From: a virus
Lineage: Duplodnaviria > Caudoviricetes
IMG/VR virus record: IMGVR_UViG_3300025687_000048
Coordinates: 1 to 59,799 of that record
DNA: 59,799 bases
Direction: 5' to 3' (one strand)
The notes under the pieces: model-generated
The model's database searches: none
Told to the model about the DNA's origin: nothing
What the model saw: the letters and a program-made list of their open reading frames with translations, nothing else
Made by a program: the position numbers and the translations under genes
Part shown: positions 8,915 through 47,966 of the stretch, in pieces
Numbering within the stretch: position 1 is the stretch's first letter
Layout of the letters: every line of letters starts with the position of its first letter

Positions 8915-8932
8915 GGATGAGCCTCCCAGAAC

Positions 8933-8977
8933 GACAAAAGGCGCATGGTGGACGAATCCTACCATGCGCCTTTTGTC
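8933..8977 (-). terminator. Intrinsic terminator hairpin upstream of the lysis/fibre module
   Basis: 17-bp inverted repeat gacaaaaggcgcatggt/accatgcgccttttgtc with a UUCG-capped loop on the - strand. Confidence 0.8.
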
Positions 8978-9026
8978 TGATGTTTTGTTGTCGCCGGGAG
9001 GCTCTACCTACATCCCGGCAGCGTTG

Positions 9027-9055
9027 AATCTACTACTCCTGCAATACCTTTGCTA
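9027..9055 (-). promoter_or_regulatory. Sigma70-like promoter
   Basis: TAGCAA-17 bp-TAGATT on the - strand. Confidence 0.5.
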
Positions 9056-9056
9056 C

Positions 9057-12000
9057 CTACATGCTGGACACCTTCACCAGCCTCTGGTACGGGCTGTCCG
9101 CAGCGTCCAGCCGCTTGCGGAGTTCCTTGATTGTCTTCGAGCGCCATCTGGACGTGCCGGAGGTCACCAGTTTGCGATCCTTGGCCGGCAGGGACTGGAG
9201 GAGACCTCTCATCCCCCCGAACTCTTCGAGGAGGGCGTTCGCCTTCGCGTCGAGTTCGTCGGCCTTCTCTGTGTGTCCCATGCGCCGGTAGCCCTGAGCC
9301 TGTCCTCGGAACCGGGCCAGTAGCAGTCGACGGTCCTCCATCGACATCTCGGGGTCGAAGCCATCGGGCGCGATCGCGGCGCGGAGCTTGCCCTGCGCGT
9401 TCTCTATCTGACTGCGCAGCTTCGTCGCCTCCTCTTCGTCCATCGCCCCGCGTGCGACAGCCCTTCCCAGAGCCGCGTTGAAGCGGGTCAGCTGGTCGTC
9501 ACCGATCAGCGTGTTGCCCGATCGCTTCACGATCTCCCGAGCCGTCTTGGCAGGCGTCCATTCACGCGGAGCCTTAAGCATCTGGCGGAGCATCGGCACG
9601 GAGTTGATCTCAGGAACGTCCCCCTTGGAGAGGGTGCGACCCGTAGCGATGCTGTTGCCGATGAACTTGCCCAGGCCCGACCCGAACTGATCGAGGAAGT
9701 GGTCCACCATCTCCGGGTTGATGTCGACGGTGTAGGGCGCGTTGATGTAGACCTCCTTGCCGTCCCATGTCTCCCCGACCTCGCCTCCCGTCATGCGGTA
9801 GAGCCAGCGGGTGAACTCCTTGGACGGCTCTCTCACAGAAGAGAAGGCCAGCTGCTGGTTCGATTTGTCGTTGCCGTAGACGACCTCCTTGCGGAGCGGT
9901 CGACCGGCGAAGTCCTTGTTCTCCCACCACTGCACGAATGGATCGACGGCAGACGGGGCCAAGAACTGGTTGAATGAACCGCCCCCGAGGGGGTTGAAGG
10001 CGTCATCGAAGGATGAGAGCACGCGCCCGGCAAGCTCCGGCAGGGTCACGTTCTGCGGAGTCCACTGACGGTCCACGGCTCCCCCGGCGAGGTCTCCGAT
10101 CACCGAGTCGGCCAGCACGTTCCCGAGGACGTGGAAGACGTTGTAGCCCCACGGCAGCTTCCAGCTGACGAACTTGCCCTCACCAGTCGGGACGAGGAAG
10201 TAGTTGTCCTTCGTCCAGTCATCGGTGTCGTCCCAGTCTTCCGGGTCGATCAACCGGTTGGCGATGCTCTGGAGGAAGCTCAATCCCACCAGTCCCGCGG
10301 CGATTCCCCGGACCTTTGGATACTTCAGCAGGGCGTGGAAGATGCGGAACGAGCCCTGGATGCCGGCGTTCGAGAAGAGCCACAGGCTGTTGAGCAGCTG
10401 CCCCAGTTCGCCCTTCTTGTTGAAGTTGACCGTCAGTTCCTTGGCAGCTGCCGCAGCATCCTTCTTCGATACGCCCTCTTCCACCAAGGTCCGATAGGTC
10501 GCCAGTCGGATGCCCGACTCCACCATCTCGTTGACGTCTGCGATGTAGTCGACCACAGCTCGGCCCGCGTTGAGCAGGTTCGGCTTCGCCATGCGGCCCA
10601 TGCGCTTCTGGAGATCCTCGGCCTTCTCGTCCAGGGACGCGACGTCGTACCAGCCCGTCTTGCCTCCCATGTCCTTGAACTCTTGATACCACTCCGACCA
10701 CTCGTTGGATCGCCCGTCCCGGATGTTGCGCCAGATGCCCTTGTAGGCGCCCCCCTTGAGAACGCGACCAACCACCTTCGCAGCGATCGCCCCCGACCGC
10801 TCGCCGGCCAGATGGATGCCCGCCGTCTGAAGGTCTCGCTCGAGGTTGGTGAGGATGAACTCCGGGTTCCAGATCGTCGCCATGCCTCGGAGGAACGAGT
10901 TGACCCCGTTGAGCCACTTGATCCCTCGCTCCATCCCGAGGTTCTTCATGCCCGACGCCAGAGCCGGATCGTGGATCGTGATGACGTGCTTCTTCCCGTC
11001 GACCCACGTCGAGAGGACGTTGTCGGCGTCCCGCACCTTCGGGTCCATGAACAGCAGGTTGCCGTCTTGGTCGTAGCGCGGGAGAAAGGTCTGCACCTGG
11101 GCCTCCCATGACTCGGACGGATGTAACTCGACGAGGTTCAGGAAGTGCTGGCCCACCTTGTTCTTCTCCGCGGCGATGATCGCCTCGGTGTGATCCGCGA
11201 TGGCCTGCGTGAAGGGGTTGTCCGCGACGGATCGACGCCCGTAGGCGCTGCGGATGCCGCGGCTCGGCACACTGAACCCCTTGCCCGTCACCGGGTGGTT
11301 CTCTGTGCCCGCCTTGCCCTTCAGGGGGACGTATCGCTCGAACTGGCCACGGAGACCGTCATACGCCTCCTGCGTCAGGAAGCCGGCCTCGAAGCGGAGA
11401 CGGAGCGTCTCCCGCGTCACACGGTCAAGGAACTCGTCAGCCAAGGACTGGGCCGCGAGGTTGTCGCCGTAGCGAGCGAGGATCTCGTCGGCCTCCTCGT
11501 CTGTCATACCGGACCCGCCGTCCTCGAAGTCAGGGTTCTTCGTGGCGATGTGCGCGTTGCGCTCCTTCGCGTGGCCTGCGTAGAGCAGCCAGCCCATATC
11601 GTCGATCGACAGGTCAGCCTCGACGGCACGCTTCAGGAAGTCTTCCTCCAGCCACTTGTCGAACTGCTCGATCTGCTCCGAGGCGCGACCGATGAACAGA
11701 GTGGCCTCGCGGTAGGTCTTGGCGTCCTCCTCGACATCCCCGATGATGTCCTCGACCTGCTCGAGGCGGTTGAGTTTGTCCTGCACGTAGCGACGGATCA
11801 GCTGGGAGGTCTTCTCCGGGGGAATCTCCAGGGGACGGTGGATGACCACGTCGCCATCCTCCTCCTCTGCGATGTGCCCCGGGGGGACTGCCTCGCGGAA
11901 CTGAGAGGAGTTCTCCATGCGGGAGATGATCTCCTCGACCTTCGCCTCTCCGAGCTTCTCGCGCAGCTGCGCTCCGCTGATCTTCGCGGCGCCGGGCTGG

Positions 12001-15000
12001 TTGCTCAGACGATCCGCGAGTTCCCGTAAGACGTCGTCGCCGCGCTGGAAGCGGGGAGTCTGGTCGCGGAAGAATCGTTGGAGTTCGCCGATGGAGTTGA
12101 AGCGATGATACCCACCGCCGTATTCGAGATTGATGCCCATCGAGCGATAGTCGCGGGCAACCGTAGCGATGGAGCGGATCTGCGCCGGAGTCGGAGTCCC
12201 CTCGGCCTGGACCTCCAGGGCGTCGCCAAGGCTTTGGACGACCCGCATGGCGCCGGTTTCCTCCATGAAAGGGGTGAGGGCGTCTTCTCCGCCCCTCCCG
12301 TCCATAGCAGCGGCAGCCATGGTGTGATGGTCTTCGGGCCGGGCGGTCACTGTGCCGTCTGCCAGAATGAATCCGGCATCAGAAGACCCATCGTATTCTC
12401 CTCCGGCCACCTCCAGCATCCGCTGCTCCAGCGGGTGGAGCCCCTTTCTCTGGAAGCGGATGTCCGGGTTCTCCGCGTCGAAGGTGCCGCGGTTGCCGGT
12501 GGCGCTCTTGATCTGGGTGGGATTGAAGGCGACGTAGACGGTCGAGCGACCTTGGCGCTCGACGCGCACCCTGTTGGGATCGTCGGCGTAGGCGTCCCGA
12601 ATCTCGGTCCACGTATCCACTTCGATCTCCGCGTCCCGCAGAAGATCCTCCAGATACTCGAACTGTCGATGTGCGGGGAGCGCGTTCTGCTCTTCCTCCG
12701 ACAGGGATTCCCAGGTTCGGATCTCCCTCCGGTAGTAGTCGACCTCCTCTTGATACCCATTGACCACATCGGTCAACATCTTGAGGGGGTTCTCCCGGCC
12801 CGAGGGGTTCTTCTGGAACTCCTCGATGTCGAGGAACATTTCTGACCGGTGGTCGATCGGCAGATCCTTGCCGTCGAGAGTCATCTTCGGAGGAGATGGA
12901 CTGTCGTAGGTGTTCTCCACGATCAATCCATCGTGCCCGCCACTCTCTGCCTGAGTGACAGCGTCGATCATGCTGAACTCGTAGCCCTCTCCATCGAGCA
13001 CAAGGGGATTGCGGAACGCCAGATACACCGGAAGGATGGACACGCCCCGCTCGTCCGAGTCAGCTTCGTTCCGCCCCCATGCCTTCGTCTTGGACAGGCG
13101 CCCAAAGTTCTCTGCGACGTCAGGAACGGACGTGAAGAAGTGGCCTTTCTTGGCAGAGGCTGTCCCCGTGGACTCCCCCAGCTTCTCCGCACTGAAGGCG
13201 TCGATCGGCTTCCTCTCCGATGTCCCATGGAACGCCTCGACGGCCACCGGCTTTCCAGTCTCGAAGGCGGCTTTGCCCTGGGCAACGTCGTCACGGGTGT
13301 AGATGGTGGCGTCCTTGCCAGCCCACCGTCTGAACCACCGGCTGTCGGTGCCTTTCTCCTGCCACTCCTTCTTCGCCTGCTCCTCGCGGCTCGGGGGAGC
13401 TCCAGCAGCTTCAGCGGGGGCGAACAGGTCGTTCTGCGCCTTGGCGCGTGCCGAGGCGCCTGCGGCCTCGAATAGGCCCGTGCCTTCCAGTCCCTTGCCG
13501 TCGCTGGCGCGGGCGCCTGTGGGCAGCTGCCGCTGATCTCCGAAGGAGAAGCCTGTCTGGTCCGGGTCGAAGGCGGGGTTGTACCGCTTCTTCCTCTGGA
13601 ACCTCACCGGCTTGATGGCGTCCTCCGGGGAGGACTGGCTGACGATCTCCTGAATCGCTCCCTCGGGGTAGAGCCGGTTCTTGACCTCGGGCTGGTCCAG
13701 TTCCTTGACGTCGCGGTGGCCCCACGGCTCCCAACCGACATCGGGGCGGTTGAAGAACTGCGTGACACGCCACGGCTTCTCGGTGCGATTGGGCATCGGG
13801 TTCTTGCTGATGACGTAGCGGTTCTTTCCGATCTCCACCGCGCCCCCGTTCGGGCCGATGACATCGCGGATCGCCTGCTGACGTCGAGCGTCCTGCGTCT
13901 CGATCTCCGCGAGCCACTGGTCCATCGTCAGATCGCTCGATGGACGCACGGCCTTCTCTCCTGTCCAGGTGGCCTTCCGCTGAAAGCGGGGCGCCCGGAA
14001 CTTCTGCACCTTCTTCGCCCGGTCATCTTGGTCCCCAGGCTTGTAGGTCAGGATGCGCTTGACGCCGTTCTGCTTGAGGATGTCCAGCACGTCCTCGTCG
14101 GTGCCACGCGGCACGACGGCGCCGGCCCACTCGCTCAGATCGACGGCCCGCTGCGGCTTCGCCTCGAAGTAGGCCGTGGGCGTCCTCTCCAGCTTCTCGG
14201 CCACCTCGAGGAAGTCTGACACCAGCCGCTCGGGCACGCCTCGGTAGCCGTTCTTCGACAGGGCTCGCATCGCGCCCCGGACACCTTTCGGTCCGTTCTT
14301 CAGGTAGTCGCCCATCGCCTTCGACGCATCGTCGAAACGGTCGAAGGACATCGCTCCCGGGTCGGCCCACTCGTAGTGTTCCCGCAGGCGATCGACCAGC
14401 GGGAAGAACTCGGACTCCTGCAACTCCTTCGTGGCGGCGTCAACCTCGTCCTTCGTCACGATGCCGCCCGCTTCGGAGCGCATCTGCTCGACAGACGTGA
14501 ACGGCTTGGCCGCTGCCGCCCTCGACTGGCCCAGCCCGTAGACCAGCCCACCCTCCTGTCCACTGGTGCCCCGCCGCGTCATTTCGGCAAGGATCTCCTG
14601 TAGACGGTAGGGCTGCTTGCGGCCCGCGTCGGTCGTGAAGAACTCACCCCCCTGCACGACCCCGAACGTCTCCCGCACCCACTTCTCGACGGCCTCGTTG
14701 CCGCCGGCCTTCTTCACGGCCCGGTCGATGCGCTTGTCGAAAAGATCGTTGTTGGGCTCTCGCTCTCGTGAAGCGATGGCGCGGAGATCCTCGGCGAACT
14801 TGTCGACGGCGTTGAATCCCAGCAGGTCGGTGTCGGCGCTGAACAGATCCTCACGGAAGTCGGCCCGCAATTCGCTCACCTCGCCGGTGAGTGACTCGTC
14901 CAGCAGGGCCAGCGCCACCTCCGACAGCTCGCGGTGGTCGTCGCCGCCGAACTCGATTCCGCTGGGGATCTTCCGCCCCTTCGCCGCGATGAAGTCGCGG

Positions 15001-18000
15001 ATCACCTTGGACTTGGGACTGACGCCGGGGATGCGACTGCGCGGCTTGCGCGGCTTCGTCGGCGTCTCGATCTCCACGCCCTGCTCTTTCAGGAACCACA
15101 GGCGCAGCCTCCGGTGAGAGTCGCCGTATCCCTCCGTCGCTTCGTAGATCGCGTTCTCGAGGCCGCGATCCAGATTCATTTGCTCCAGGTCGTTGTGGGC
15201 GTCCCAGTCGGCCCTCCACAGGCCCGTCTTCGCCATCCGCGACGCCAACTTCTCCATCTCATCGTCCTGTAGATGGTATTCGCGGCGCGGCTGGCGACGG
15301 GTGTAGGCGTCAGCTGGGTAGGTCTTGTTCGTCGAAATCTCCGGGTCGACCAGATCCTTCGTGCCGATCAGTGTGATGTCACCGTAGCGCAGGGCGTCCT
15401 TCACCTTGTCTGGCGTCGTGATCGCCAGCGACGGGACCGGCAGGCCACCGAGCTCCACCTGATTGCGGATGCCCTCGGCGGTCGTGCCGTGGACGGCGAT
15501 CAGCGGCGGGCCGCCCTCGGCGCCACGCTTCTTCTGGAAGCGGGCAACCTCTTCGATGCTGATGGCGTTCTCGTCGAAGACGACGTAGTTGTGGCCGTCT
15601 CCTGGGCCAGCCGCGCTCAACGAACTGGTCGGATAGCGGATGCCGTCGATGCCAGCACGCAACAGGAAGAGAGATGCGGCCCTGTCCGACCGGATGGGCT
15701 TGATCGGACTGAAGGCCCGGTCTTCCTCCCACATCTTCTCGTTGTGCTCCAGTGCCGCCAGTCGCGCATCGTCCCAGTTGTCGACGTAGTCCGCGATGAC
15801 CTCGCCATTTGTGGAGACTCGGTATCCCTGAAACTGATTGCCAACGATGCGATACTCTTCCTCCGTCATCTCATTGAAGGCAGTCCACTCATACTCTTGG
15901 TTTTCGATGGCGTCGTCATAGGCGCGGCTCTGTGCCACTTCCTCTGCCCGCTCTTCGAGAGCGTCCTCGTCGACCTCACCATCCTCCCCGATGAACTCGT
16001 CTCGCAGTTCCTCCTTGACCTCGGGGAGCATCTCCTTGGCCTGCTCGTCGGCGTAGCTGTGATCCAAGGGGATAGGCTCGCCGTTCGCCTCGTATAAGTA
16101 TATCTCTGGCGCCTCCTCATTGTCGTAGGTGTCCCATGCGCCCGTGATGACTTCGCCGCGTGTGTATCCTTCCTCGACGTCGGCGGTCTCAAGCGGGGGT
16201 GTGGCGTACCATGTGTCGGTGTAGAAGCCGGCGTCGAGCGTTCCCTCGATGGCGTCGAGGGCTTCCTGCTTGGAGTCGTAGAGCACCCCGCCACCCATGT
16301 ATTTGATGATGCTCGGGTGACGGACCCGCCAGAGCTCCTTGTCGGGAACCTTGTCGATCTCGAACCCGGAACGGGCTTCGTCTTTCATCTCGCCCGCCGT
16401 CTTGAACTCCACCTTCCACCCCGGAGGGGGATCGAGTTTCTCCGCAGCGTGATACTGTAGGTTGACCTCGAGGACGTTGCGGTAGATGAAGCTGAACGAT
16501 CCTTGGCGGATCTCCTCCTCGTCCAGGAACAGACCCTCCTCGCCGCCCTGACGGAGGATCTTGTCGGCCTGCTCGTTGGTCAGTTCCTCGTACCAGTCGA
16601 CGTAGTCATACTCGCTGGGGTCTTTGCCCTTGTGAAGCGCGACCTTGTAGCCATATGCGCCGGGCTTCTCGGGGATGACGAAGTCTTCGAGGTCGGCATC
16701 CTTGAGAGTCTCCTCCCAGAAATCGGCCAGCCTCTGCATGTCGTCCTTGGCAGCCCCATCCGCGGCATGACTCAGCCGAGCCGGAATGACCTCCGCCAGA
16801 TGGCCCATCATGTAGTCGAACATCGACCGACCACCGTCCGGGTGGAAGGCGTTTCTCGCGTAGTCGAGGAGGGCGTCGAGATCCGACACAGTGTCTTGCG
16901 CTCCGACTCCTGACCACCACGTCGTATGCCCGGGCGTCGGGAACCGAATGATGCCGCCGTGGGCTTTGATACCGGGCTGCTCATGGTTCCGTCGCTTGAA
17001 CTGTTCCAGATAGGAGTGGAACACCCCGTCTGTGTCGGTGAAGTAGCCGCCCCATCCGAACGCTTGGGCTCCCTCTCCTGTGCCCACCTGTGAGAGGGCG
17101 AAGTTCGAGAACTTGTGCGGCGAGGCGTGCTTCACCATCAGCTGATAGCGTGGATCGTCCTTCGACAGACCCGCGACATACTCTCGGTGCGCCCATTCGC
17201 CCATGACCTGGGCAACGGAGTTTCGCACTGCCTCGACGTCCTTCAGGTAGGCGTCTTGGTTGTACGACTGGTTGAAGGCGAGGCGGATCTTCGTGAGCAG
17301 CTGCTTGAGGTAGTTGTAGACCTGACGCACCACGTCGGGCGCCTGCTCTTGCAGGTTGACCCAGAACTCGCGCTCTGTCATGCGAGCGCCCACGACGTCG
17401 GCAGCGAGCTCCTCGACGGCCAGGGATGTGTTGTCACCGAACTGCCGTCCCCCCTTGTGGCGGAGCCAGCGGCGGGTGGCCCCGTCCTCCTTCAGGGTGG
17501 TGACGAGCTTGTCGAAGAGGTCTGGCTGATCGTCGGCCAGCAGATGGGTCAGTTCGTGCCCAACGACAGCGACGTGGTGGTTGTCGGTGTCGACGTTGAG
17601 GAAGACGGAGCCTTCAAAGGTGACCCCGTTGAACGACCCGGCGCTCGGGTTGGTGGCCTTGATCCAGACGAGGTTCTTGCCGAAGACCTTGGCGATCTTC
17701 GCTGCCGCCTCGGCGCTACGGTGGCCGGGCTGGTCTACTCGTTGAAGGGAACCGCTCGGGAAGTCAGGGAACCCGTCCCGCTGGTTCGCTTCGCGGACTG
17801 CGCTCTCAAGACGAGCAACAGCCTGTTCCTCCATATGGCGAGCATCTGCCGCTGACGTTCCTCGAACGTCATTCCCTGGAACCCGTTGAGGCAGTTCACT
17901 CGCGTCTGCATCGCTCTTCCGCTGGAAGGGAGTGATGTCTCCAAAGAAATCGCCTCGCCGCTTCACCGTGTCAAGGATCTGGTTCAGGCGGTCTCCGAAT

Positions 18001-21000
18001 CGCTCCGAGTTCTCCCAGATCCATCGCTCCATTGCCTTCAGAGAGTCGATGTCCTTCGTCTCGGAGATGTCTTGGACGATGCGGTCGGGGTCATACTGCG
18101 ACGCCATCTGCTCTTGCTCGGCCATCGCCGGGCTGTCACTGGGCCTCGTCGGATACCTCTGCGACAGGCCATCCTTGCGAACGACGTCCGCGAACGACTG
18201 GAAGTCCTCGACGCCCGCCGCTCGCAGAACTTCTGCGTATTCCGGCGTCTGCATGGCGTTGTCGATGATCGTCTCGACGTCCGTCCCCGGGGCGCCCGGG
18301 ACGATGGCGTCTTGAACTCGCTTGGTGCCCTTCAGGATCTGTCGCTGATCCCGGTCGGAGATGGAGCTTGCCCGCAGCAGGCGCTGCATGGCGCCCTTCT
18401 CCAGTGTGCCCGTGGCGTCCAGCACGCGCTGCACTTCCCACGCAGGGAGAGTGCCGGCCCGCTTGCCGACGATCGACCCCACCGTGAGGCTGATCGGGAT
18501 TTGCCCCTTGTTGGGATTGGTCTTCCGCTTCGGTGCCTGGACGACGTCGACATCCGTCTCCGGTGCGACGTCAAGCTCGACCTCTTCGCCCTGCTCGTTG
18601 GTGACGTTGAGACGCTCGACCTGTCCCCGAACCGTGGCGCCCAGGTGGCGCATCTTGGCTGCGATGATGTCGCGGTTCCACTGATCGACCTCGGTGTTGG
18701 CGAACAGGTAGCGGATCTTGAAATCGGATTTGGTCGTCAGGCGCCATCCGCGCCCCGCGGCCTGCACGTTCCCCACGGCATCGAAGGGAGCCGTGGCGAC
18801 GATCATGGTTCGGGGGGCATCCCCCACGGTGTCGTCGAGGTTGATCCCTGTTCCGCCGCTCTCGATGGTCGCCAGCACCACCCGGGCCTTCCCAGACTGG
18901 AACTTCTCCATCGCGTCCGCGGCCTTCGTCTCCGCCCCGCCGTGCAGTTCGGCCAGATCGGTGATGCCTCGGTTGGCCAGTTCCTCACGAAGCGCCTTGG
19001 CAGTTCCCTCGGATTCGGCGTAGACCTCTCGTCCGACAACCTCCCACTCGCCGGAGATGGCGTTCTGGACCTTGATGTCCTGACCGGCCTCCGAGTAGTT
19101 GACTCGGGAGACGAAGATGATGGGACGGCGCCCCGCGGCGAGTTCCTCTTCGACGGAGTCAGCGATCCGCTGGATCTTGTAGGGCTCCTGCTGGCGCCGA
19201 AGGTGCATGAGCACCCGGGCCTTCTGGAGACCTTGCAGCGAGTCGGGGTGTCCGAAGCCGGTGTAGATGGATGCCTCGACGTCCTTCCACTGGGGCGGAA
19301 GGTCGACCGTCTCCATCTGCACATCGACGCCCTGGAAGCTGATCTCCCGCTTCACCATGCGCCCCTGTGCCGTCATGCGATCGAACAGCCACCCCATGCG
19401 GGTCAGGGCGAGGGTCTCCCCTACCTCATCCTTCACAGCCCAGAACTCGCGCCCGTTGATGTTCCGCTTCTCGAGGCCCAGAAACTCCATCTGGTCCTCC
19501 ATGTCCTTCCCTTCGAGCACGCCCACCCGGGCCATATAGGGAAGGTGAACCGGCTTGTCGGCGGGAGTCGCGGTGGCGTAGAGGACCGAGCGGGCCTTCT
19601 CGCTCATGCGATTGCCAACCTCGGCGCGAGACGTGCCCGAGAGGAGGTTCTTCAGGCCGTGCGCTTCGTCCCACACAAGCACCGTGTTCTCGTCCACGGA
19701 GGCGGCGAGCCGCCCCATGCGCGTGTAGGTGGTGACGTAGACCTTCCCCGGCTCGAACGCCGTCTTGTCCTTGACGAGCTCGATGTCGAGGCCCATCGCC
19801 TCGGCGTCTTTCGCGTAGGAGCCGGTGATCTTGCCCTTGTTGGAGAAGGGCTTGCCCAGCACTTCGTTCGGCGCCACGATGAGCACCGGCTGGCCGCGGT
19901 CAGCGTAGATGCGGGAGACGGCCAGGATCTGGCGCGTCTTGCCGACGCCGGTCCCATCCGCGAGGAGGAAGCCGCCCGGGTCGCTGTCCATTGCGGCGAC
20001 CGCCTTGGCGACTCCCTGCTGCTGGTGGTCGGTCAGGCTTTCTCGGAGTCCTGCGGGGATGCCGGAGACGTCTGCGTCTGCGGTGAACTCCCATCGCCCG
20101 ACCCGGATTCGCCCTTCAGGCTCCGCATCTGATCGTACTGGCTCAGGGCGCTCATCTCCTCTCGATTCAAACTGTCCGGGAGCTGTCGCGGCGAGGCCGC
20201 TTTCCTTGAGCTGTTCTGCGATTGCCGCCGTTGGGTCATAGCGATACCTCCATGTCTTCGAGCGTCGATCGAAGCTGCCCTGAAGTTCGCCGGCAACCTC
20301 TCCGAGGGTGCGCCTGTGCGGGAACGTCTTGCCGTCCACCACCCAGGCGTCGTCGTCCTGTGAAACCGTCAGGTCCGCGTTGTGCAGGATCTCCCGGTCC
20401 TCGTCCGTCGCCTCTACCACTGCAACATCGGGAGGCGGGAACTTTGCGTCTACCGCGGCCCGGAGGGCGGCGATGAAGTCGTGACTGATCTTCCGGCTCG
20501 GGGACAGGTTGCCCGCCGCCCACTGCGCGTAGTCGGGAAACTCCTCCAGCACCTGGGCGATAGTCTTGCCGGCGTGCTTGCCGATCGGGAAGACCTCAGT
20601 GGAGATGCGCCCGATGGTGCGCAGGTCGTCGTCCGTCGCACCGGAGACGCGGACCCCGCTCTCCTGCTCCCAGCGATTGATCGCCTCCCGCGCCGCCTCG
20701 GCGGTGTTGCCGAGGTTCTTGACGAAGATGTCGCTGCGATTCCCCGGCTCGATGCCCTTCGCCCGTAGCGTGAACATCGCACCGGTCTCACCGATGCCCA
20801 CGTAGTAACGGAGGCCATCCTTCGCGTCGACCAGTTCCTGGCTGGAGGTAGACGCCGGAACAGGTGCCGCGGCGGGAGTAGCCTCCTGCTTGGGCGGAGG
20901 CGGAGCAGGCTCCGGTTCCGCCTTCGGCAGGGCGTAAGGCTCCGGCGTGCCCCAGTCTGCGTCGGGCGGGCCGAGACGCCATCCGACCCTCTCGTCGTTC

Positions 21001-34825: not shown

Positions 34826-34845
34826 CTCTCTCCTCCTCGCCCCCA

Positions 34846-37772: not shown

Positions 37773-38533
37773 CAGTATGCCCTCCGTCGACCGATGAGTG
37801 TGGCTGAGATGCTCTGGTCGACGGCGCCTCCCTTGGCCACCACGGCGATCGCACTCTTCTGTGGGAGTTGCTTGCCAATTGCCCACTGGTGCGGTTCACC
37901 ACCGTTGGCGATCGTGCCGCTGACGATCACGTCGTAGTCGGCACTGAAAGACCAGAAGGGGCCTGTCTGCGGGTAGAGGCGGAGTTCGTACGAGGTCGAG
38001 TTGCCGCCGCCGTTGTTCTCGATGATGAAGTAGTCCAGGACCGGTCTGTCGGGTTTGCCAAAGACGACGAGGGCCTGTGGTTCCCAGAAGACGCCCGCGG
38101 CGATCGTCCCCAGCTGCACAGCCGATCCCTTGGTGTGGAACACCTTGAACGTGCCGGCCATCGTGGAGTCGAGGTAGGCGGATTCATACCAGTGGATCGC
38201 AGAGTCGGTGACGGCGGTGTCGCCGCCCGCGATGGCCAGCTGCTGTTCGATGCGCCTGCCGCTGACAGAGAGGCCCGTCACGGTGACGTAGGCCGTGTCG
38301 GTGACCGTTCCCGCTGACGTCGTGTCGTGTGCGACGTAGATGACCGAGTCCTTGGCCGTCGCCGCGAACTGCGCATCCCCGGTGACAAGCTCGAACGAGC
38401 CGTCGATGTCGGTGTCGGTGACGTGGATGTAGAACCCGTCACCGGAGGACGCTCCGGCGCCCGGGTTGTAGTTGAGCGGCTCTGCGAAGGAAGCGCCCGC
38501 AAGGAGGGCGATCAGTGCGATGTAGCGGATCAT
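37772..38533 (-). CDS. Signal-peptide, beta-rich protein right after the portal (253 aa)
   Basis: MIRYIALIALLAGASFA|E; ATGA overlap with the portal stop. Confidence 0.78.
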   Translation of the reverse strand: MIRYIALIALLAGASFAEPLNYNPGAGASSGDGFYIHVTDTDIDGSFELVTGDAQFAATAKDSVIYVAHDTTSAGTVTDTAYVTVTGLSVSGRRIEQQLAIAGGDTAVTDSAIHWYESAYLDSTMAGTFKVFHTKGSAVQLGTIAAGVFWEPQALVVFGKPDRPVLDYFIIENNGGGNSTSYELRLYPQTGPFWSFSADYDVIVSGTIANGGEPHQWAIGKQLPQKSAIAVVAKGGAVDQSISATLIGRRRAY

Positions 38534-40698
38534 GCTGCGACTCCTGCTGCGGGTGGGGGCGGGGGCGCTCCAGGCGCGGGCGGTCCCGGCTGCGGTTGAG
38601 GTTGTCCCGGAGGTACCGGTCCCGGAGTGACCCCGCCTTGCACACTGGCGGTGAGCATCTCGATCAGCTGTGGCGCCGGGATACCGGACGCCTTCGACAC
38701 TTCTTCGAGTTGCGCGGCCAACTGCTGCGCCATGTCGTGCTTCTCGATGGCTTCGACGAGTTCGTCGGCGTTGTTCCAGTCCTGCTCCTTGGCGACCCAC
38801 GGGATGGCGGCGGGACCAACCGCGTTCAGGACCATCTCCGACTGCTCGATCTTCTCGAGCTTGCTCGCCTCGCGGGAGGTATCGAGGGTCAGGCGGATCT
38901 TGTTGAAGACCACGTCGCGGGTGGTCTCGTCGTTCAGGACGAGGATCTCCGCAGGCTTGCCGGCCTCGGTGACCCACTCCATCTCCTGCTCCATGTCGGG
39001 CATCTGCCCGGGCACAGGGGCTTCCTGTGGGGCGTCTCCTGCCGGCTGCTGCTGGAGACTGAAGACGGACGCCACTTCCTCCTCGGAGAAACCGATGAAC
39101 AAGACCTTCTCGCGGTCGTCGTTCGGGTCGGTGATCTCTCCGAGGTAGCGATTGCCTCGCATGAACTGGGCGATGTTGTGCAGGCGCAGGAGCGTCTGGC
39201 GCTCCAAACCGGATTCGATGTGCCGGCGCACCTTCGTCCCCAGCTGATTCTGGCGGGCCATGAGAGCGCGGATGGCGCGGCCCGACTGTACCTGCCCAGG
39301 CACTTCCGCCCGGGCGACGTCGTCGATACCAGAGATGTCGCTGGCGATGTCCTTCAGCAGCGGGAGCGTGCTGGAGAACAGTTGAGCTCCGGTGGGGTTG
39401 TATCCCTGGAACGTGGGCGGCTCGATCCCCTGCATCGTCTCGATGAGGGTCAGAGGGTCTCGCCCGATGCGGGGGATCTTCTCCTTCTGGTCCTGTGGGA
39501 CGGAGCCGCGGAAGGAGTGGATGTAGCCGATGTTCGCAATGAACATCTGGTCGAGCATGGCCGAGATGGCTTCGTTGCGAACGTCTTGGAAGCCGATCAT
39601 GTAGCTGATCTCGCCCCGGGCGCGGCTCTCGTCGCGCAGGCGGATGCAGGGGAACCAGCAGAAGGGAAAGCGTCCGTGTCCGTTCTTGCTCTTGTCGAAC
39701 GGACTCAAGCGGTGCTCGACCACCATATCCGAGACCACGACCGACTCCCACATCTCCACCGTGGGATGCTGCGTCTCGACGACTTGGTCCTTCATCTCGT
39801 CTTCGAGCTGATCGTAGTTCTCCTCGGTGACCATGACCTCTTCGCCGGTCTCATCGAGGATCGTGGCCGGCGAGGCGTCGTCGGACCACCAGTAGCGTTT
39901 CTCGACGATCTGCTTCTTGTGCCACATGCGCTTGATCCACACGCGGTCCTCGCTGTGGGCCATCTTGCGCTGGGCGCCCGCCTTGCCCCCCTTGCCGCGC
40001 ATATAGGAGCGCAGATGGGGGTGCAGGTAGTTCGTCGGATTCTCGTAGTTCAGGTCCACGTCCTTGAGGACGGGATACATCGACTTGACCTCGGAGGTCT
40101 TGCGGTCCTCCAGCCAGATCATCCACTCGCCATCGTCTCGCTGGAACTCCCGGGCGCCAGGGTCCGGGATGACGTAGCGAGAATCGACCCACAGTCCACG
40201 GGGCAGGCCGCGGCCCTCGTCGGCGTCCTGGTCCCAGCCCTCGAACCAGCATCCCTCCCCGATGTGGAAGCAGTCGGTGATGCAGTCTTCCGAGTTCTCC
40301 TCGTAGTTCTCCTCCTCGTCCCGGGTCCATTCCAGAACGTGGAGGAGCAGGCGAGCGAAATCGGTGTGCTTCGGGTGGCGGGCGCTCGGGTTGATGACGG
40401 GATCGCCGTCGAGCACCTCGTTGACCATGCGGTCGATGTCGCGGCGGATGAAGTTGGCGACCACGCGGATGCGGTCGCGGTCCTTGCGGCGGAGGTTGCG
40501 CCGATACTGGTCAGAGCGGTAGTAGCGGAGGGAGGTCGACGCCTCCAGCAGCCATGTGCCGTTCTCCGCGATGCCGAACTGGACGCGGCTGTTCGTGAGT
40601 TCAGCGAGGTCGTCGCCTTCCCACTCCACTCGCGTCTGCGGCGGGCGCTCGTCCTCCCCGGGATCGACCGGAGAGAGGCGGTTCGTGATGGCTACCAC
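38530..40698 (-). CDS. Portal protein (P22-like)
   Basis: 722 aa; VANFIR, GEGC, HGRFPF, SGRAI motifs; Pro/Gln-rich tail. Confidence 0.85.
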   Translation of the reverse strand: MVAITNRLSPVDPGEDERPPQTRVEWEGDDLAELTNSRVQFGIAENGTWLLEASTSLRYYRSDQYRRNLRRKDRDRIRVVANFIRRDIDRMVNEVLDGDPVINPSARHPKHTDFARLLLHVLEWTRDEEENYEENSEDCITDCFHIGEGCWFEGWDQDADEGRGLPRGLWVDSRYVIPDPGAREFQRDDGEWMIWLEDRKTSEVKSMYPVLKDVDLNYENPTNYLHPHLRSYMRGKGGKAGAQRKMAHSEDRVWIKRMWHKKQIVEKRYWWSDDASPATILDETGEEVMVTEENYDQLEDEMKDQVVETQHPTVEMWESVVVSDMVVEHRLSPFDKSKNGHGRFPFCWFPCIRLRDESRARGEISYMIGFQDVRNEAISAMLDQMFIANIGYIHSFRGSVPQDQKEKIPRIGRDPLTLIETMQGIEPPTFQGYNPTGAQLFSSTLPLLKDIASDISGIDDVARAEVPGQVQSGRAIRALMARQNQLGTKVRRHIESGLERQTLLRLHNIAQFMRGNRYLGEITDPNDDREKVLFIGFSEEEVASVFSLQQQPAGDAPQEAPVPGQMPDMEQEMEWVTEAGKPAEILVLNDETTRDVVFNKIRLTLDTSREASKLEKIEQSEMVLNAVGPAAIPWVAKEQDWNNADELVEAIEKHDMAQQLAAQLEEVSKASGIPAPQLIEMLTASVQGGVTPGPVPPGQPQPQPGPPAPGAPPPPPAAGVAA

Positions 40699-40724
40699 CA
40701 GAGAGAACCTCGATCTACTGCCAA

Positions 40725-40839: not shown

Positions 40840-40868
40840 AACCTACGCGGCCTGTTTGCCTTCGGCAA
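40840..40868 (-). promoter_or_regulatory. Sigma70-like promoter
   Basis: TTGCCG-17 bp-TAGGTT on the - strand. Confidence 0.55.
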
Positions 40869-41187
40869 GCCCGAAGACGATGTCGGCGGCGGCGACCCGT
40901 CCCTTCTCAGTCAGGCGCCACATCTTCTTGACGATCTCTTGATTGTCCTTCAGGGGCGCCCTGTGACGGTAGACCTCGACGAGACCGTGCTTCTCGAGGT
41001 TGTGGAGAATCCCCTCCGCGATGGTGCGCGTCGTGCCGATCATCCGGCCCAGGTGCGACACCGTCATGCCCATCGTCGCCCGACTGAGAACCGCCTGGAC
41101 CCGGTCACCCAGCGGGAGAATCCGGGTGCTGTCGATGAACTCCCAGTAGCGGTTGACCCGCTCCATCTGCCGTTCCTTCATGCCCAT
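40843..41187 (-). CDS. Winged-HTH DNA-binding protein
   Basis: MTVSHLGRMIG...ILHNLEKHGLVE...WRLTEKG. Confidence 0.75.
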   Translation of the reverse strand: MGMKERQMERVNRYWEFIDSTRILPLGDRVQAVLSRATMGMTVSHLGRMIGTTRTIAEGILHNLEKHGLVEVYRHRAPLKDNQEIVKKMWRLTEKGRVAAADIVFGLAEGKQAA

Positions 41188-41188
41188 G

Positions 41189-42046
41189 CTACGCAGCCTC
41201 CGTGTTGAATAGGTCGATGATGGTCTGAGCTACCTCTGAGCGGTAGATGTCGTTGTCCTGCTGCTCCTCCGTGGGCCGCGGCTCCCTCTCGTAGCCGTCC
41301 GACTCCTGCCATGTGCGGATCTCGTAGGTCATGTCGTAGACCTGCATCCGCTCCAGCACCATCCCCAGAGCCCGGTTGGGCGTGCTGATCGGCTCGTTCG
41401 AGCCGTCGTAGCCGTGCATCCTCTCCCAGATGTCGCAGTCGAGGTTGACCAGCATGTCCCGGTGAAAGAGCGCGTTGGCGATGCGCAGGTTGGTCAGCGG
41501 GTCTTCGTAGGGCGTCTCGACCACAGGGACCGTCCGGTGCTCCGTCTTGAAGCAGGGCCACCATGTCTCGACGTGATGGCCGAGGTAGTGCTGATCGTAG
41601 TCTTGCAGGCCGTCGATGTTGCGGATCGACCGGGTGAACCCCTGCTTCGTGTCGGGCGGCACCCAGAGCAGTTCGGGCCACCAGATGTCCTTCAGGGCTA
41701 CGAGAACGCGGCCCAGTGTGAACAGCGAGGGATACTCGACATCCTTCTCGCGGATCTGGTACTTGATCTGCTCCTCCGGGCTGAAGTCTCTCGCGTCGAG
41801 GGCCACGCCTTCGTCGAGGATGACTCGCTGGCGGTCCTTCTGCCGAGGGTCGCCGTCGTAGAGCTCCCCCACCACCACGGCGTAGGGCGGGTAGTTCCCC
41901 TCCCCGTTGACCGCCGCCATCCAGATCCGCGTGAACTCCCAGTCGTGCGGCTCTATGTCGAGGTTGGCATCGGGGGGCGGGGCCTCCCAGACGCGCACAG
42001 TCGGCGGTCCCTCCTGCCTCCTCCTGACGACGACGTCCCGCTTCAC
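41189..42046 (-). CDS. Hypothetical protein (285 aa), possibly RNase H-like fold
   Basis: GTGA overlap with the upstream gene; PYAVVVGE...VILDE. Confidence 0.6.
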   Translation of the reverse strand: MKRDVVVRRRQEGPPTVRVWEAPPPDANLDIEPHDWEFTRIWMAAVNGEGNYPPYAVVVGELYDGDPRQKDRQRVILDEGVALDARDFSPEEQIKYQIREKDVEYPSLFTLGRVLVALKDIWWPELLWVPPDTKQGFTRSIRNIDGLQDYDQHYLGHHVETWWPCFKTEHRTVPVVETPYEDPLTNLRIANALFHRDMLVNLDCDIWERMHGYDGSNEPISTPNRALGMVLERMQVYDMTYEIRTWQESDGYEREPRPTEEQQDNDIYRSEVAQTIIDLFNTEAA

Positions 42047-42342
42047 TCGGGATACCCGTCCCCTTTCGATTCGTCCATCTGGGCGAGGAGCTTCTTCTCC
42101 GCCTCCTGAATCGCCTTGATCGCCCGGAGCAGGTAGACCTGGGCGTCGTGCAGCCACGCCAGCCGGTCAGAGGCGGGGGCGTTGCCGTAGAGGTTGAGGT
42201 TCGAGTGAACCTTCAGGTTGACCTTGTCGCGGTCCTCTTCGTCCTGCTGGAGGGCGACGAGGAACCAGACGTCGCTCCGCTTCAGGAGCCACAGGCCGAA
42301 CTTCTCCGCGTAGGTGAGGCGCTGCTTCTTCTTCTTGCTCAC
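42043..42342 (-). CDS. Hypothetical protein (99 aa)
   Basis: Coupled ORF in the late operon. Confidence 0.6.
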   Translation of the reverse strand: MSKKKKQRLTYAEKFGLWLLKRSDVWFLVALQQDEEDRDKVNLKVHSNLNLYGNAPASDRLAWLHDAQVYLLRAIKAIQEAEKKLLAQMDESKGDGYPE

Positions 42343-42421
42343 GACAACACCGCCAGTAGGAGTCCAGTGAAGAGGGCGAGGCCGGCCCAGGTGACCACGA
42401 TCATCGCAGCGATCGACCGTT

Positions 42422-42943
42422 TCATCCGATCTCTTCTTGCGACTTCGCCACGGAGGTCAGCGTCCGGGGAATGTCAGAGACGCAGTGCCGGTGAGAGTTG
42501 AACCGGCTGGCGAGGTCGACGAACTGATCCTCCAGAGAGGCGATCCGCTCGAAGATGTTGCCGCCCGGGATGTCGTCGTTGAGTTGCTGGTGGGCAGCAC
42601 GTCCCGCTTCGGCATCTTTCAGTGCCTCCTGAACGTCCGGGTGGACGGGACCGGGTTCATCGAGGCTACTCTCCAGTGCACGGATCTTGCGGAGGACGAC
42701 CTCGAACGAGGCTCGGACCCGAGTTCGATACTCCCGCTCGTCGGGTGCCATGACGTCCTTGAGATCGAACGTCTCGTCGTCGTGGGTAGTGTCGAGAGTC
42801 ACTCCGCTGACGTGATCGTGCTCCGCCGTCACGTTCGGCATCCACTTCGCCATCCAGTGCGGCGACGACAGGGTCCGGGCATCGGAGATCGCCTGGGTGA
42901 GGACGTTCAGCTGCTCGTCTGTCAGGCCGAACTGACCACTCAC
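42422..42943 (-). CDS. Hypothetical protein (173 aa)
   Basis: GTG start with GGGAGG RBS, overlapping the upstream stop. Confidence 0.55.
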   Translation of the reverse strand: MSGQFGLTDEQLNVLTQAISDARTLSSPHWMAKWMPNVTAEHDHVSGVTLDTTHDDETFDLKDVMAPDEREYRTRVRASFEVVLRKIRALESSLDEPGPVHPDVQEALKDAEAGRAAHQQLNDDIPGGNIFERIASLEDQFVDLASRFNSHRHCVSDIPRTLTSVAKSQEEIG

Positions 42944-43059
42944 AGCGGCCTCCCCTCTTCGTCGCACATCGGGGCGTTCTTCATCTCCCACCAGAGCCAG
43001 AGCCCCCCGACGACCGCGGCGGCGAGCCACACGCCAGTGATGAACCACAGCCACGTCAT
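42940..43059 (-). CDS. Small TM protein (39 aa)
   Basis: MTWLWFITGVWLAAAVVGGLWLWW. Confidence 0.5.
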   Translation of the reverse strand: MTWLWFITGVWLAAAVVGGLWLWWEMKNAPMCDEEGRPL

Positions 43060-43225
43060 CGACGGGCCTCCATCGCCTCGACGTGGTCCCACCGGGGCGG
43101 AACGGGTGTCACCCTCGATCCGAGGATGCGGTTCACCGTCGCTATCTCTCTGAGATGGCGGGTGCAGGCATCGCACGGATCGTCCAGCACGACGCCATGC
43201 ACGCACGTCCCCTTCGATACTCCGC

Positions 43226-43471
43226 TCACTGCACCATCCTCGGGGTCAGGGGCTGGGCCACTCGCTTCACGACGACGTCGACCATGACGGTCGTGGTGTC
43301 GTCGAAGGCCATCTCGACCGGGATGGTCGTGAAGGAGTCGGTCAGGGCTGTGGAGACGGCGGCGCCGTTCTCCAGTCGTGAGATCCGAGTGTCAATGTCG
43401 TCGACCGTGTTCAGTGCCAGACCGGCGACGATGAGCCCGATAACAGCAGCTCCGATCAACTTGGAATCCAT
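43226..43471 (-). CDS. Small protein with N-terminal TM/signal (81 aa)
   Basis: MDSKLIGAAVIGLIVAGLAL; AGGAGG RBS. Confidence 0.55.
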   Translation of the reverse strand: MDSKLIGAAVIGLIVAGLALNTVDDIDTRISRLENGAAVSTALTDSFTTIPVEMAFDDTTTVMVDVVVKRVAQPLTPRMVQ

Positions 43472-43571
43472 CCTGCTCCTCCTATCCATGAAAGTGCGGT
43501 GAGCACACCAGCCAGGGCGCCCGCAAGGAACCCGACGAGGAACGCCTTAGTGACGGTCCACTCGTCGTCTC

Positions 43572-45533: not shown

Positions 45534-45552
45534 TACTTAGCATACCTTTCCA

Positions 45553-46125: not shown

Positions 46126-46126
46126 C

Positions 46127-46468
46127 CTACCTCCAGAGGTTCAGGATCTGGGTGAGTTTGCCGGGCCACGGCTTGCCCGATATGCGCTTGATGCCGGTCC
46201 ATGCAGCCTGCCAGCCGGCGACAGCTGCGGCCCACCATCTCCAGTCGGTGTCCCATGCGAGGTAGCAGACCCAGAAGACCGCAGGCCACATCGCCGCGGA
46301 GAAGACGTGGAACCAGTCGGTGATCTGGAGACCGGGAATCAGAGGGCGGTGTGCCCACGGTGCTTCCTCATGCCGGTACCAGACGTGGGTCGAGACCTTG
46401 CCCGCTTCGTGGAGCAGGACCAGAGCGAGGGTGATCTCGAGGGCGTAGGTGTCGAGCAAGGATCTCAC
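46127..46468 (-). CDS. Trp-rich membrane protein (113 aa)
   Basis: GTGA overlap; about three hydrophobic segments. Confidence 0.55.
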   Translation of the reverse strand: MRSLLDTYALEITLALVLLHEAGKVSTHVWYRHEEAPWAHRPLIPGLQITDWFHVFSAAMWPAVFWVCYLAWDTDWRWWAAAVAGWQAAWTGIKRISGKPWPGKLTQILNLWR

Positions 46469-46695
46469 TTGCGCATGAGCCTCGGAAACTCGACCGGGTC
46501 GAACAGGAGCTTGCCGTCCTTGGGCATGTTCCAGGTGGTGCAGACCTCGTTGCGGATAGGCATGACCTCCCTGCCGTGGTGGATCGCCTGCCTCACTCGA
46601 CGACGTAGGCGCCTGTGTGCGTTGCGCTTGTCCCACTTCTCGCTGTCGGCACAGGTCACCCCACAGATGGGTGTCTTCCGGCGTGACCGGGACAT
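46465..46695 (-). CDS. Small Arg-rich protein (76 aa)
   Basis: MSRSRRKTPI...SEKWDK...WNMPKDGK. Confidence 0.7.
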   Translation of the reverse strand: MSRSRRKTPICGVTCADSEKWDKRNAHRRLRRRVRQAIHHGREVMPIRNEVCTTWNMPKDGKLLFDPVEFPRLMRK

Positions 46696-47033
46696 CACGC
46701 GGCACGCCTCTGGCGGGTCTCGAAGAACCCGTCCAGTTCCGGCTCGTCGTCCATGAGCCTGCGGGCGTAGAGCGCACGGTAGGAGTTGTTCAGCTTCCAC
46801 TCCTCCCCGGTGGTGGCCAGGGACGACCACCGGAGAACCTCGAACATCTGATTGATCGAGCCTCTGTCTTTGCCGGCGCGGCTCTGTCCGAGGGCCATGT
46901 GGGCCAGCGCCTTGTAGACGTGGGGGTTCGCCGCATGGAAGGCGAGGAACGCCTGCTCGACGGAGTCGGTGGGGTTCCGCCGCACGTCGTTGAGAGGAAG
47001 CCCCAGCTGCTCCAGAGGGAGGGTCTGGTTCAC
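46695..47033 (-). CDS. Conserved phage hypothetical protein (112 aa)
   Basis: FHAANPHVY...FEVLRW...KLNNSYRALYAR pattern. Confidence 0.7.
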   Translation of the reverse strand: MNQTLPLEQLGLPLNDVRRNPTDSVEQAFLAFHAANPHVYKALAHMALGQSRAGKDRGSINQMFEVLRWSSLATTGEEWKLNNSYRALYARRLMDDEPELDGFFETRQRRAA

Positions 47034-47623
47034 GCGAACGGCTCCCTCTCCTGCTCCTTCCACTGGGCAGAGCGGAGATCCCAGTAGGCAGGCGTGAGGC
47101 GCGGGTCGACGTGGATGTGGCCGTCGTAGAGGCCGATGCCGCGGAAGCCGACCTCCTTGGCCATCTCGCCGAGGATGCGGATTTGCTGCGGCAGGGGTGT
47201 CCGGGGGGAGATGCGGGGCGATCGCTGTGACGGGGTCAGGTCGAGCGCGAAGCGATTGCTCTCAGGGTGACCGGTGTCCAGCAGTAGGTGTTGGGAGTCC
47301 TCGGCGCCCATGTCGACCTCGGGGCCGAACTCCTCGATCATGCGCTCCCGTAGTTCCTCGGCGGTCCACCGCTGGCCGCGTGCCCTGGCGAGGATGGGGC
47401 CGCGCTCCTCGACGGGGAGGCCGACGACCACGTTGTAGAGCGGATGGCGAAACCCGGAGGTCGCCTGAAGAGGAGCTCCCCACTTCGAGCGCAGCTGCTG
47501 CGCCTTCTCCATTCCCTCGAGGAAGGCGGGACAGACGAGCACATGCCCTGTCAGAGGATCGACGAACTGATCCTCTGACTTCCACTCGAAGTTGGGCGTA
47601 CGCGGCGTGACCGGAAACAGCAT
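47030..47623 (-). CDS. Peptidase M15A-family endolysin
   Basis: TSGFR, SQH, ALD, GIGLY and HIHVD zinc peptidase motifs. Confidence 0.85.
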   Translation of the reverse strand: MLFPVTPRTPNFEWKSEDQFVDPLTGHVLVCPAFLEGMEKAQQLRSKWGAPLQATSGFRHPLYNVVVGLPVEERGPILARARGQRWTAEELRERMIEEFGPEVDMGAEDSQHLLLDTGHPESNRFALDLTPSQRSPRISPRTPLPQQIRILGEMAKEVGFRGIGLYDGHIHVDPRLTPAYWDLRSAQWKEQEREPFA

Positions 47624-47805
47624 GACAACCCCCTTCTGCGACTGGGCCACACCAGACGCCGGATGGGTAGGCACCCGGCGCCCGGTGGACCCGTGAAGGA
47701 CAGAGCAGTCGCTTGGGGAAGGGGTAGGGTGGGTAGAGTCACCCGGGGCCTCCTCACCTGCTCCGTCCTGTGCTGGACCCGCGGGGCCTTCACCTCCCAC
47801 AGATC

Positions 47806-47869
47806 CAGAACGACAAACTGGCGGATACCTCGATCACCCGTGTCCAGGTGGTGAAGGCACCCGCCAGCG
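47806..47869 (-). terminator. Terminator-like hairpin in the late leader
   Basis: ctggcgggtgcct...aggtatccgccag followed by UUUGUCGUU on the - strand. Confidence 0.55.
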
Positions 47870-47937
47870 TTCAGCGCGGGACTCGAATGGTCCCGTATGT
47901 CGTTGTTGGAGAGCGTTCTTCCTCTCCCATGACACTG

Positions 47938-47966
47938 AAGGTCTCGGGCCTACATGCCCATGTCAA
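47938..47966 (-). promoter_or_regulatory. Leftward (late) sigma70-like promoter
   Basis: TTGACA-17 bp-GACCTT. Confidence 0.55.

Follow-up and report, generated by a model that had tools for sequence, protein, structure and literature searches.

Strong intrinsic terminators at the heads of the late gene blocks in a Caudoviricetes genome

The IMG/VR virus record IMGVR_UViG_3300025687_000048 (Duplodnaviria; Caudoviricetes) was analyzed in its entirety and is called the window in the following (59,799 bases, about 64% G+C). Strong intrinsic terminators head the three late modules on its minus strand, i.e. M15 endolysin/packaging, portal/head, and spanin-like/holin-like/tail fibre. These terminator gates are real and they are kept in position. 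Concerning their passage, we favour factor-dependent processive antitermination, with about even confidence. The layout is lambda-like, in a variant with several gates and no known antiterminator.

The timing of late gene expression is poorly understood beyond the lambdoid phages. Strong stops before lysis, head and tail blocks that are kept in position at 42% portal identity, in a genome that encodes no recognised antiterminator, point to a candidate read-through factor in a widespread freshwater/groundwater phage group. The source of the record should be an uncultured freshwater phage, podovirus-like and transcribed by the host RNA polymerase.

Terminators and leaders of four cassettes

The whole minus strand was scanned for single hairpins followed by a T-run, with a cut-off for the free energy (dG) of -24 kcal/mol or lower. 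Only four sites were found in the 59.8 kb, each of them in a non-coding gap. Three of them are the terminators of three leaders that an earlier sequence-only reading had described, and all promoter, hairpin and motif strings quoted in that reading were found in place on the minus strand. The fourth cassette, L4, had escaped it. The four cassettes, their terminators and the first gene past each gate are as follows.

L1, 8915..9062, minus strand: gate between the giant gene (stop 9059-57) and the spanin-like gene (ATG 8914)
Parts of L1: TAGCAA 9055-50; 17 nucleotides (nt); TAGATT 9032-27; hairpin GCCGGGA 9019-13 / TCCCGGC 8999-93; ACAACAA 8991-85; terminator 8977-33; TTTGTCGTTCTGG 8938-26; Shine-Dalgarno (SD) motif GGGAGG 8927-22
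L1 terminator in the minus-strand scan, 8972-38, minus strand: dG -24.3
Spanin-like gene, 8309..8914, minus strand: first gene past L1; start ATG 8914
L2, 40699..40868, minus strand: gate ahead of the portal gene
Parts of L2: TTGCCG 40868-63; 17 nt; TAGGTT 40845-40, overlapping the stop of a 114-aa (amino acid) winged-helix gene; hairpin GGAGC 40830-26 / GCTCC 40820-16; ACAACGA 40804-798; CCCC-UUCG-GGGG hairpin 40795-84; terminator
L2 terminator, 40764-30, minus strand: dG -30.1; T6 run
P22-type portal gene, 38530..40698, minus strand: first gene past L2; start GTG 40698
L3, 47805..47966, minus strand: gate in front of the block for M15 endolysin and packaging
Parts of L3: TTGACA 47966-61; 17 nt; GACCTT 47943-38; hairpin GGAGAG 47927-22 / CTCTCC 47913-08; ACAACGA 47906-00; hairpin GGGAC 47894-90 / GTCCC 47882-78; long hairpin 47868-17; TTTGTCGTTCTGG 47817-05
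L3 terminator, 47868-17, minus strand: dG -37.0
M15-type peptidase gene, endolysin-like, 47030..47622, minus strand: first gene past L3
L4, 48838..48979, minus strand: cassette located between the XRE gene and the plus-strand early gene that follows
Parts of L4: weak TTGCGG-17-TACGTT; ACAACGA 48938-32, 41 nt upstream of the stem; terminator 48891-45; T5 run
L4 terminator, 48891-45, minus strand: dG -32.0

L1 and L2 have terminators of canonical form, whose stems comprise 15-17 G+C-rich pairs and are followed by T4-T6 runs. In the output of a terminator-prediction tool, 40764-30 was assigned to the minus strand and the 8977-33 hairpin to the plus strand. The L3 hairpin is imperfect (52 nt) and is followed only by UUUGUCGUU, i.e. 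a UUUG U-tract. The distances from the terminator to the start codon are about 24 nt at L1 and about 31 nt at L2, which leaves no room for a promoter in between, so that the downstream genes need read-through. L3 does precede the endolysin/terminase operon, as had been claimed, but not directly. The most likely start of its first gene is ATG 47622, preceded by a GGGGG ribosome site, and L3 would therefore head a highly structured 5′-untranslated region (5′-UTR) of about 320 nt, with about 180 nt of structured sequence between the end of the terminator and the ATG. The folding check proposed in the sequence-only reading turned out clearly, as all three leaders fold better than dinucleotide shuffles (z = -6.6 for L1, -5.5 for L2 and -4.6 for L3; 0/200 shuffles as good).

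The promoter-like sites of L1, L2 and L3 match 7, 7 and 8 of the 12 consensus positions, and none passes the threshold of the prediction tool. Sites with at least 7/12 matches and a 17-nt spacer occur 53 times on the minus strand, i.e. about once per 1.1 kb. Thus, the "three late promoters" exist as sites but are weak and, taken singly, at chance level. However, such a site is located 50-125 nt upstream of three of the four terminators, more than expected by chance, and promoter activity at the gates is plausible. CGCTGC directly follows the -10 element in leaders 1 and 2, as had been noted earlier, and the distances from the -10 element to the ACAACRA box are 35, 35 and 31 nt (L1, L2, L3; counted by eye). 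The spacer of the L3 promoter-like site contains ATGTAGGCC.

Likeness between the leaders was quantified by local alignment against 500 dinucleotide shuffles. L1 and L2 share 37 stem columns (score 45, shuffle maximum 27; 0/500 as good), and in the alignment one U-A to C-G exchange preserves the base pair. L1 and L3 share the stem end and the exact 13-mer TTTGTCGTTCTGG (score 27, shuffle maximum 24; 0/500 as good), which confirms that these two leaders end identically; the only exact copies of TTTGTCGTTCTGG in the window are at 8938-26 and 47817-05. The above-chance sequence similarity between the leaders is confined to the terminators. The description of three similar leaders thus holds for the terminators, whereas the hairpin plus ACAACRA matches in pattern only.

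ACAACRA is the only 7-mer pattern, with one R/Y position allowed, that is common to the three 5′ leaders. Any such shared pattern was obtained with shuffled leaders in 79/3000 trials, and ACAACRA was obtained in shuffles of the independently found L4 leader in 79/3000 trials. The hairpin plus ACAACRA is therefore graded as a phage-specific candidate signal with modest support from within the phage. In the minimum-energy folds of L1-L3 the box is unpaired; the L3 fold also has AACGACA paired with UGUCGUU. A second small hairpin lies 3′ of ACAACRA in L2 and L3, and is not present in L1. The two hairpins of L2 and of L3 are separated by 13-20 unpaired nt, and L1 has a single hairpin.

L1 can form a long-range helix of GAGCCUCCCGG with UCUGGGAGGCUC (GAGCCTCCCGG 9004-8994 / TCTGGGAGGCTC 8930-19), which encloses the terminator, hides the SD motif of the spanin-like gene and is incompatible with the 5′ hairpin. 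The duplex energy is -31.0 kcal/mol, compared with -20.4 +/- 3.6 kcal/mol in shuffles (6/500 as good). As a general device, an outer helix around the terminator was discarded, since L2-L4 and 13 relatives gave no significant result.

The sequence ATGTAGGTA has exactly three exact copies in the window, all in or beside cassettes (9062-9054 and 9013-9005, minus strand; 48829-48837, plus strand). With one mismatch allowed there are 7 matches versus 1.55 expected, and no shuffle reached 7. A role for it was set aside, because its position relative to the promoter-like sites is inconsistent.

Gate positions in related phages and occurrence

Portal-alignment scans of viral, metagenome and genome contigs yielded 22 loci, 16 of them with upstream sequence, of which 15 are distinct. 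All portal relatives have 49% identity or less, and none was found in the phage collection searched. For 13 of the 15 distinct loci, a terminator (dG -17.6 to -30.7) is located between a conserved nuclease-fold gene and the head module. Upstream of that terminator, four loci (L005, L007, L008, L019) have a promoter with at least 9/12 matches, and seven more (L006, L009, L010, L011, L012, L018, L023) have a weaker sigma-70-like match, read by eye, with TATCTT or TATTCT as the -10 element in five of these seven. A near-consensus promoter lies 25-190 nt upstream of the terminator in several relatives. Loci L003 and L016 have near-perfect promoters without a terminator. The relatives' leaders are 25-187 nt long, some of them only 25-40 nt, and they have no motif in common with the window.

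One relative, G002 (a 56.7-kb record, 42% portal identity), has terminators at all three matching gate positions:

3990-4032 of G002: terminator before the M15 peptidase gene, dG -26.6
Before the portal gene of G002: terminator, dG -17.6
42469-42502 of G002: terminator before the spanin-like gene, dG -30.8, 23 nt ahead of the ATG

The spanin-like gene of G002 encodes a 201-aa lipoprotein with a C-terminal membrane helix and follows a 3276-aa giant gene, the positional counterpart of the 5557-aa polyvalent gene of the window. From comparison of the two records, the three gate positions are conserved between the window and G002, and the sequences are not.

Several further observations concern the relatives. 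A second stable hairpin directly after the head-module terminator, before the ribosome site, is found in L005-L009, L010/L011, L018 and L019. Locus L014 has two copies of a TTGACA-17-TATATT promoter unit (1616 and 9861), 8.2 kb apart, and their likeness extends about 30 nt past the -10 element. The pattern TTTGTCGTTCTGG..GAGG was found at 36 loci of the viral_contigs set, three of them distinct with a terminator hairpin just before it; these three are unrelated to the phage by tblastx, and were treated as chance or host style.

The phage is present in 19 public runs of 12 studies (freshwater, aquatic, marsh), including two metatranscriptomes, and its transcript ends should therefore be mappable without cultivation. 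The RNA libraries were compared as contigs, which show neither starts, ends nor strand. A 376-nt RNA-library contig covers 47948-47573 without a mismatch and extends across the hairpin and U-run of L3 as far as the M15 gene. Read-through at L3 would fit this contig, as would DNA in the library. Two observations were not used as evidence. First, there is no contig depth over 40888-43543 in either RNA run, which proves nothing. Second, a contig of the RNA run X17 (40503-40719) begins just after the L2 T-run, and none of the RNA contigs shown lies over the L2 leader.

Passage of the gates and rival explanations

The proposed mechanism is as follows. The strong intrinsic terminators divide the minus-strand late arm into blocks, each stop being placed just before the first gene of its block. 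L3 would gate endolysin and packaging; L2 the portal, the head and the giant injected protein; and L1 the spanin-like gene, the holin-like gene and the tail fibre. With efficient termination, the gates would keep lysis and virion genes silent and yield short terminated leader RNAs. A phage factor would then render RNA polymerase terminator-resistant (processive antitermination, as with lambda Q, lambda N or GafZ), and the hairpin plus ACAACRA might serve as a loading or pause site.

The lambdoid late switch consists of the Q protein, the PR′ promoter, a qut site or pause, the tR′ terminator and the 6S RNA. The gates of the phage share with it a promoter (here predicted) with an intrinsic terminator about 50-130 nt downstream, directly before lysis, packaging or virion genes, the need for read-through in late expression, and an expected short terminated leader RNA. 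The phage, however, has three or four gates where the lambdoid switch has one, it encodes no Q-family protein, and its promoters are weak, whereas the lambdoid promoter is strong and constitutive. In the lambda N/nut system, the RNA carries boxA and the boxB hairpin, and the N protein is arginine-rich. Somewhat like nut, the phage leaders L2 and L3 have a box, predicted to be single-stranded, and a small hairpin in the transcript upstream of terminators, and there are several candidate loading sites on one arm, with L3 beside the immunity region, as is nutL. However, the box is ACAACRA and not boxA, L1 lacks the second hairpin, and the sites of the phage precede late genes, whereas nut sites precede early genes. 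The put RNA of HK022, formed by two adjacent stem-loops, acts in cis without a protein.

Papers on the lambdoid late switch include the Q-lambda structure paper (PMC9388147) and the StxS paper (PMC7547250). According to PMC11150451, GafZ, with GafY, is responsible for anti-termination of the gene transfer agent cluster of Caulobacter, and its binding element lies between -35 and -10. The likeness would be a small non-Q factor that lets polymerase bypass terminators in a phage-derived structural cluster (PMC11150451), and the presence of such a factor in our phage is what we infer. GafZ acts from a single promoter, unlike the gates of the phage.

The absence of a lambda Q homologue, which the sequence-only reading had reported, was borne out: the Q families PF06530, PF03589 and PF06323 gave 0 matches in six frames at E-values up to 1. 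No N family turned up in the general Pfam and PHROGs scans, which covered about 55 open reading frames (ORFs), and no gene of a known antiterminator family lies upstream of the gates. The following genes were considered as sources of a factor.

40843..41187, minus strand: 114-aa winged-helix protein, MarR/IclR-like, directly upstream of gate L2
54674..54844, plus strand: 56-aa helix-turn-helix (HTH) protein, 47% identity to its match in G002, E 2e-12
54008-54238, plus strand: 76-aa paralogue of the 56-aa HTH protein, with an arginine-rich N-terminus
41189-42046, minus strand: conserved 285-aa gene, upstream of the portal gene in nearly all relatives

The 114-aa protein and the conserved 56-aa HTH protein are candidate factors. 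The former, a candidate regulator, is an orphan among the 5.8 billion proteins of a large database; no homologue was found in the relatives' loci, in three relatives' records or in a viral_contigs scan, and its single-sequence AlphaFold model has a predicted local distance difference test (pLDDT) value of 47.4. Beyond the nuclease-fold gene and the proteins for virion, packaging and lysis, the 56-aa HTH protein is the only clear match between the window and G002. The HTH family to which it belongs comprises 488 representative clusters (E <= 0.001), Pfam gave generic HTH matches only, two viral_contigs scans returned only G002, and a local hidden Markov model found none in the other fetched relatives' loci. 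As its co-occurrence with gates rests on one relative, G002, it may be regarded as a weak candidate for the read-through factor. The 285-aa protein (model pLDDT 78.6) has a predicted RNase H-like fold that resembles terminase nucleases, Ydc2 and RuvC (best E 2.7e-4), and this nuclease fold rules it out as an antiterminator or regulator; a PDB profile search gave no match. The large terminase already carries its own nuclease part besides this gene. A 211-aa CxxC protein (53373-54008) was dropped as a factor, having no match in three relatives' records.

Several results weigh against antitermination and against a part of the hairpin plus ACAACRA in it. The Pfam and PHROGs scans revealed no antiterminator family, and the 114-aa protein lacks a homologue in relatives that also have gates. 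The 5′ halves of the leaders, with hairpin and ACAACRA, are not similar beyond chance. Of the 25 copies of ACAACRA in the window, 21 lie on the minus strand, mostly within genes; the motif is frequent in the coding strand of the phage. Conservation of the motif in related phages, on which the sequence-only reading had staked its element, was not seen, as ACAACRA occurs in 0/11 relatives' leaders. The weakness of the L1-L3 promoters, the poor U-tract at L3 and the location of L4, which is not ahead of any late gene, point in the same direction. Of the shared element that was said to gate all late modules, the stops at the module heads stand, whereas hairpin plus ACAACRA is a mere candidate for the recognised part.

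The main rival is passive attenuation or insulation. Partly leaky stops between operons would tune how strongly each block is expressed relative to the others and protect the prophage's lysis and virion genes from stray read-through, without a dedicated antiterminator, and the promoter-like sites and ACAACRA would be functionless. The failure to find an antiterminator family, the chance-level promoters and the lack of leader conservation in relatives all agree with this, as do the loci L014 and L021, in which a terminator also follows the capsid genes, a classic stoichiometry device. However, 15-17 bp G+C-rich stems with T4-T6 runs before portal and capsid genes would throttle the most-needed products, the near-consensus promoters upstream of the terminator in several relatives are hard to reconcile with an operon end, and the shared motif has its modest statistical support. 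Passive attenuation is thus unlikely, though it is the rival to be taken most seriously.

Two further explanations seem to us improbable to a similar degree. One is multi-site antitermination unrelated to Q and N. Each block would have a weak promoter and a nut-like site, read by a small DNA- or RNA-binding protein, and the leaders would form a small-RNA family with an ACAACGA seed that pairs with GUCGUU/UUGUUG tails beside ribosome sites, coupling read-through to translation of the lysis genes. The candidate nut-like site would consist of the 5′ hairpin, the single-stranded ACAACRA and the second hairpin, with the 56-aa HTH family or the 114-aa winged-helix protein as candidate readers.

The other is that the cassettes are small-RNA units, each yielding a terminated RNA of about 90-125 nt like lambda 6S, StxS or OOP, whose ACAACGA seed would act on UCGUUGU-like targets, including the GUCGUU/UUGUUG tails near ribosome sites. 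L4 runs antisense to the rightward early leader and has no gene to gate; it would be an antisense RNA of the OOP type. The unpaired box in the L1-L3 folds, the pairing of AACGACA with UGUCGUU in L3 and the ability of the L1 leader to hide an SD motif fit this reading, and StxS is reported to be a terminated late leader that acts in trans (PMC7547250). But a CA-rich box will readily be complementary to a U-rich terminator tail by chance, the outer helix is specific to L1 among the cassettes and the 13 relatives by significance, and the targets are predicted only; in addition, small-RNA action is compatible with gating.

Less probable still are mobile promoter-terminator cassettes. PeSLs are reported to be composite promoter-terminator motifs of T4-type phages (PMC2839356, PMC4122927). 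Repeated units of this kind would mark module borders, mainly as recombination points for module exchange. PeSLs offer a precedent as repeated promoter-plus-stem-loop units at module borders with partial homology among copies. The homology of the phage cassettes is likewise partial and mosaic, with a stem common to L1 and L2 and a tail common to L1 and L3, and the contigs shown of strain X8 (about 97% alike) break off to either side of L2 and likewise of the L3/immunity region. However, only 22-37 nt are shared, the L1/L2 stem pattern has no match in any other viral_contigs record, and breaks of assembly contigs are weak evidence. In addition, PeSLs are far more numerous and flank variable early genes, whereas the phage units head core late blocks.

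A cis attenuator or riboswitch, in which an alternative antiterminator helix competes with the terminator on a ligand, leader peptide or temperature signal, has the structured leaders upstream of the terminators in its favour but is largely refuted, since pairing of the leader with the 5′ arm of the terminator is no better than in shuffled leaders for any of the four cassettes, no Rfam family matches any leader at E-values up to 5, and no leader ORF with an SD motif was seen in the sequences of L1-L3. The earlier label "attenuator-like", if it means competing folds, thus fails. With leaders that lack a competing fold, the switch in our favoured reading, processive antitermination, would be a trans-acting factor or a polymerase-modifying RNA and not a cis attenuator.

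Gene order and minor features of the window

The complete late arm is on the minus strand, from 47.6 kb down to 1.7 kb. The order is M15-type peptidase, large terminase, the 285-aa gene, the 114-aa winged-helix gene and the P22-type portal, then the major capsid protein, an SU10-type adaptor and the 5557-aa giant ORF, and then a spanin-like lipoprotein, a holin-like membrane protein and the beta-helix tail fibre. The plus strand has, from 48.1 kb, an XRE regulator, Gam, Erf, HNH nucleases, a replication protein and an integrase, and the phage is therefore temperate. The genes of the late arm that follow or precede L1 are listed below.

7909-8334, minus strand: holin-like membrane protein, after the spanin-like gene
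4304-8173, minus strand: tail fibre (beta-helix), after the holin-like gene
9057-25730, minus strand: giant polyvalent protein, 5557 aa, with SNF2-type helicase, ART-PolyVal, PBECR5 nuclease and LPD38 domains

The product of the gene at 8309..8914 has a lipoprotein signal (LSIGC), a coiled coil and a C-terminal membrane helix, and was called spanin-like for these three properties. Domain scans of the giant polyvalent protein did not find an RNA polymerase domain, and the use of the host RNA polymerase was derived from this. The tail-fibre gene contains a tandem 141-nt repeat at 7064-7345 (77% identity). At the end of the late arm there is a gene for a 143-aa PAS-domain protein (3418-3849, minus strand).

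The membrane-protein/XRE gene pair is flanked by clusters of ATGCAA/TTGCAT hexamers, at about 47978-48105 and 48680-48750, which are probably operators. In one variant strain, 12 nt are inserted at 48745 and repeat part of the hexamer motif.

The record ends, 1-3200 and 57008-59799, repeat each other with 80-98% identity. The repeat holds the 3′ part of the integrase gene, GGATAAC repeats, a 77-aa gene and a metallophosphoesterase gene of 491/492 aa. This suggests either that two strains of a circular genome were merged in a wrap-around assembly or that related elements lie in tandem. The 25-nt repeats containing GGATAAC, at 474-676 and 57481-57683, adjoin the integrase gene and may be arm-type integrase sites or attP.

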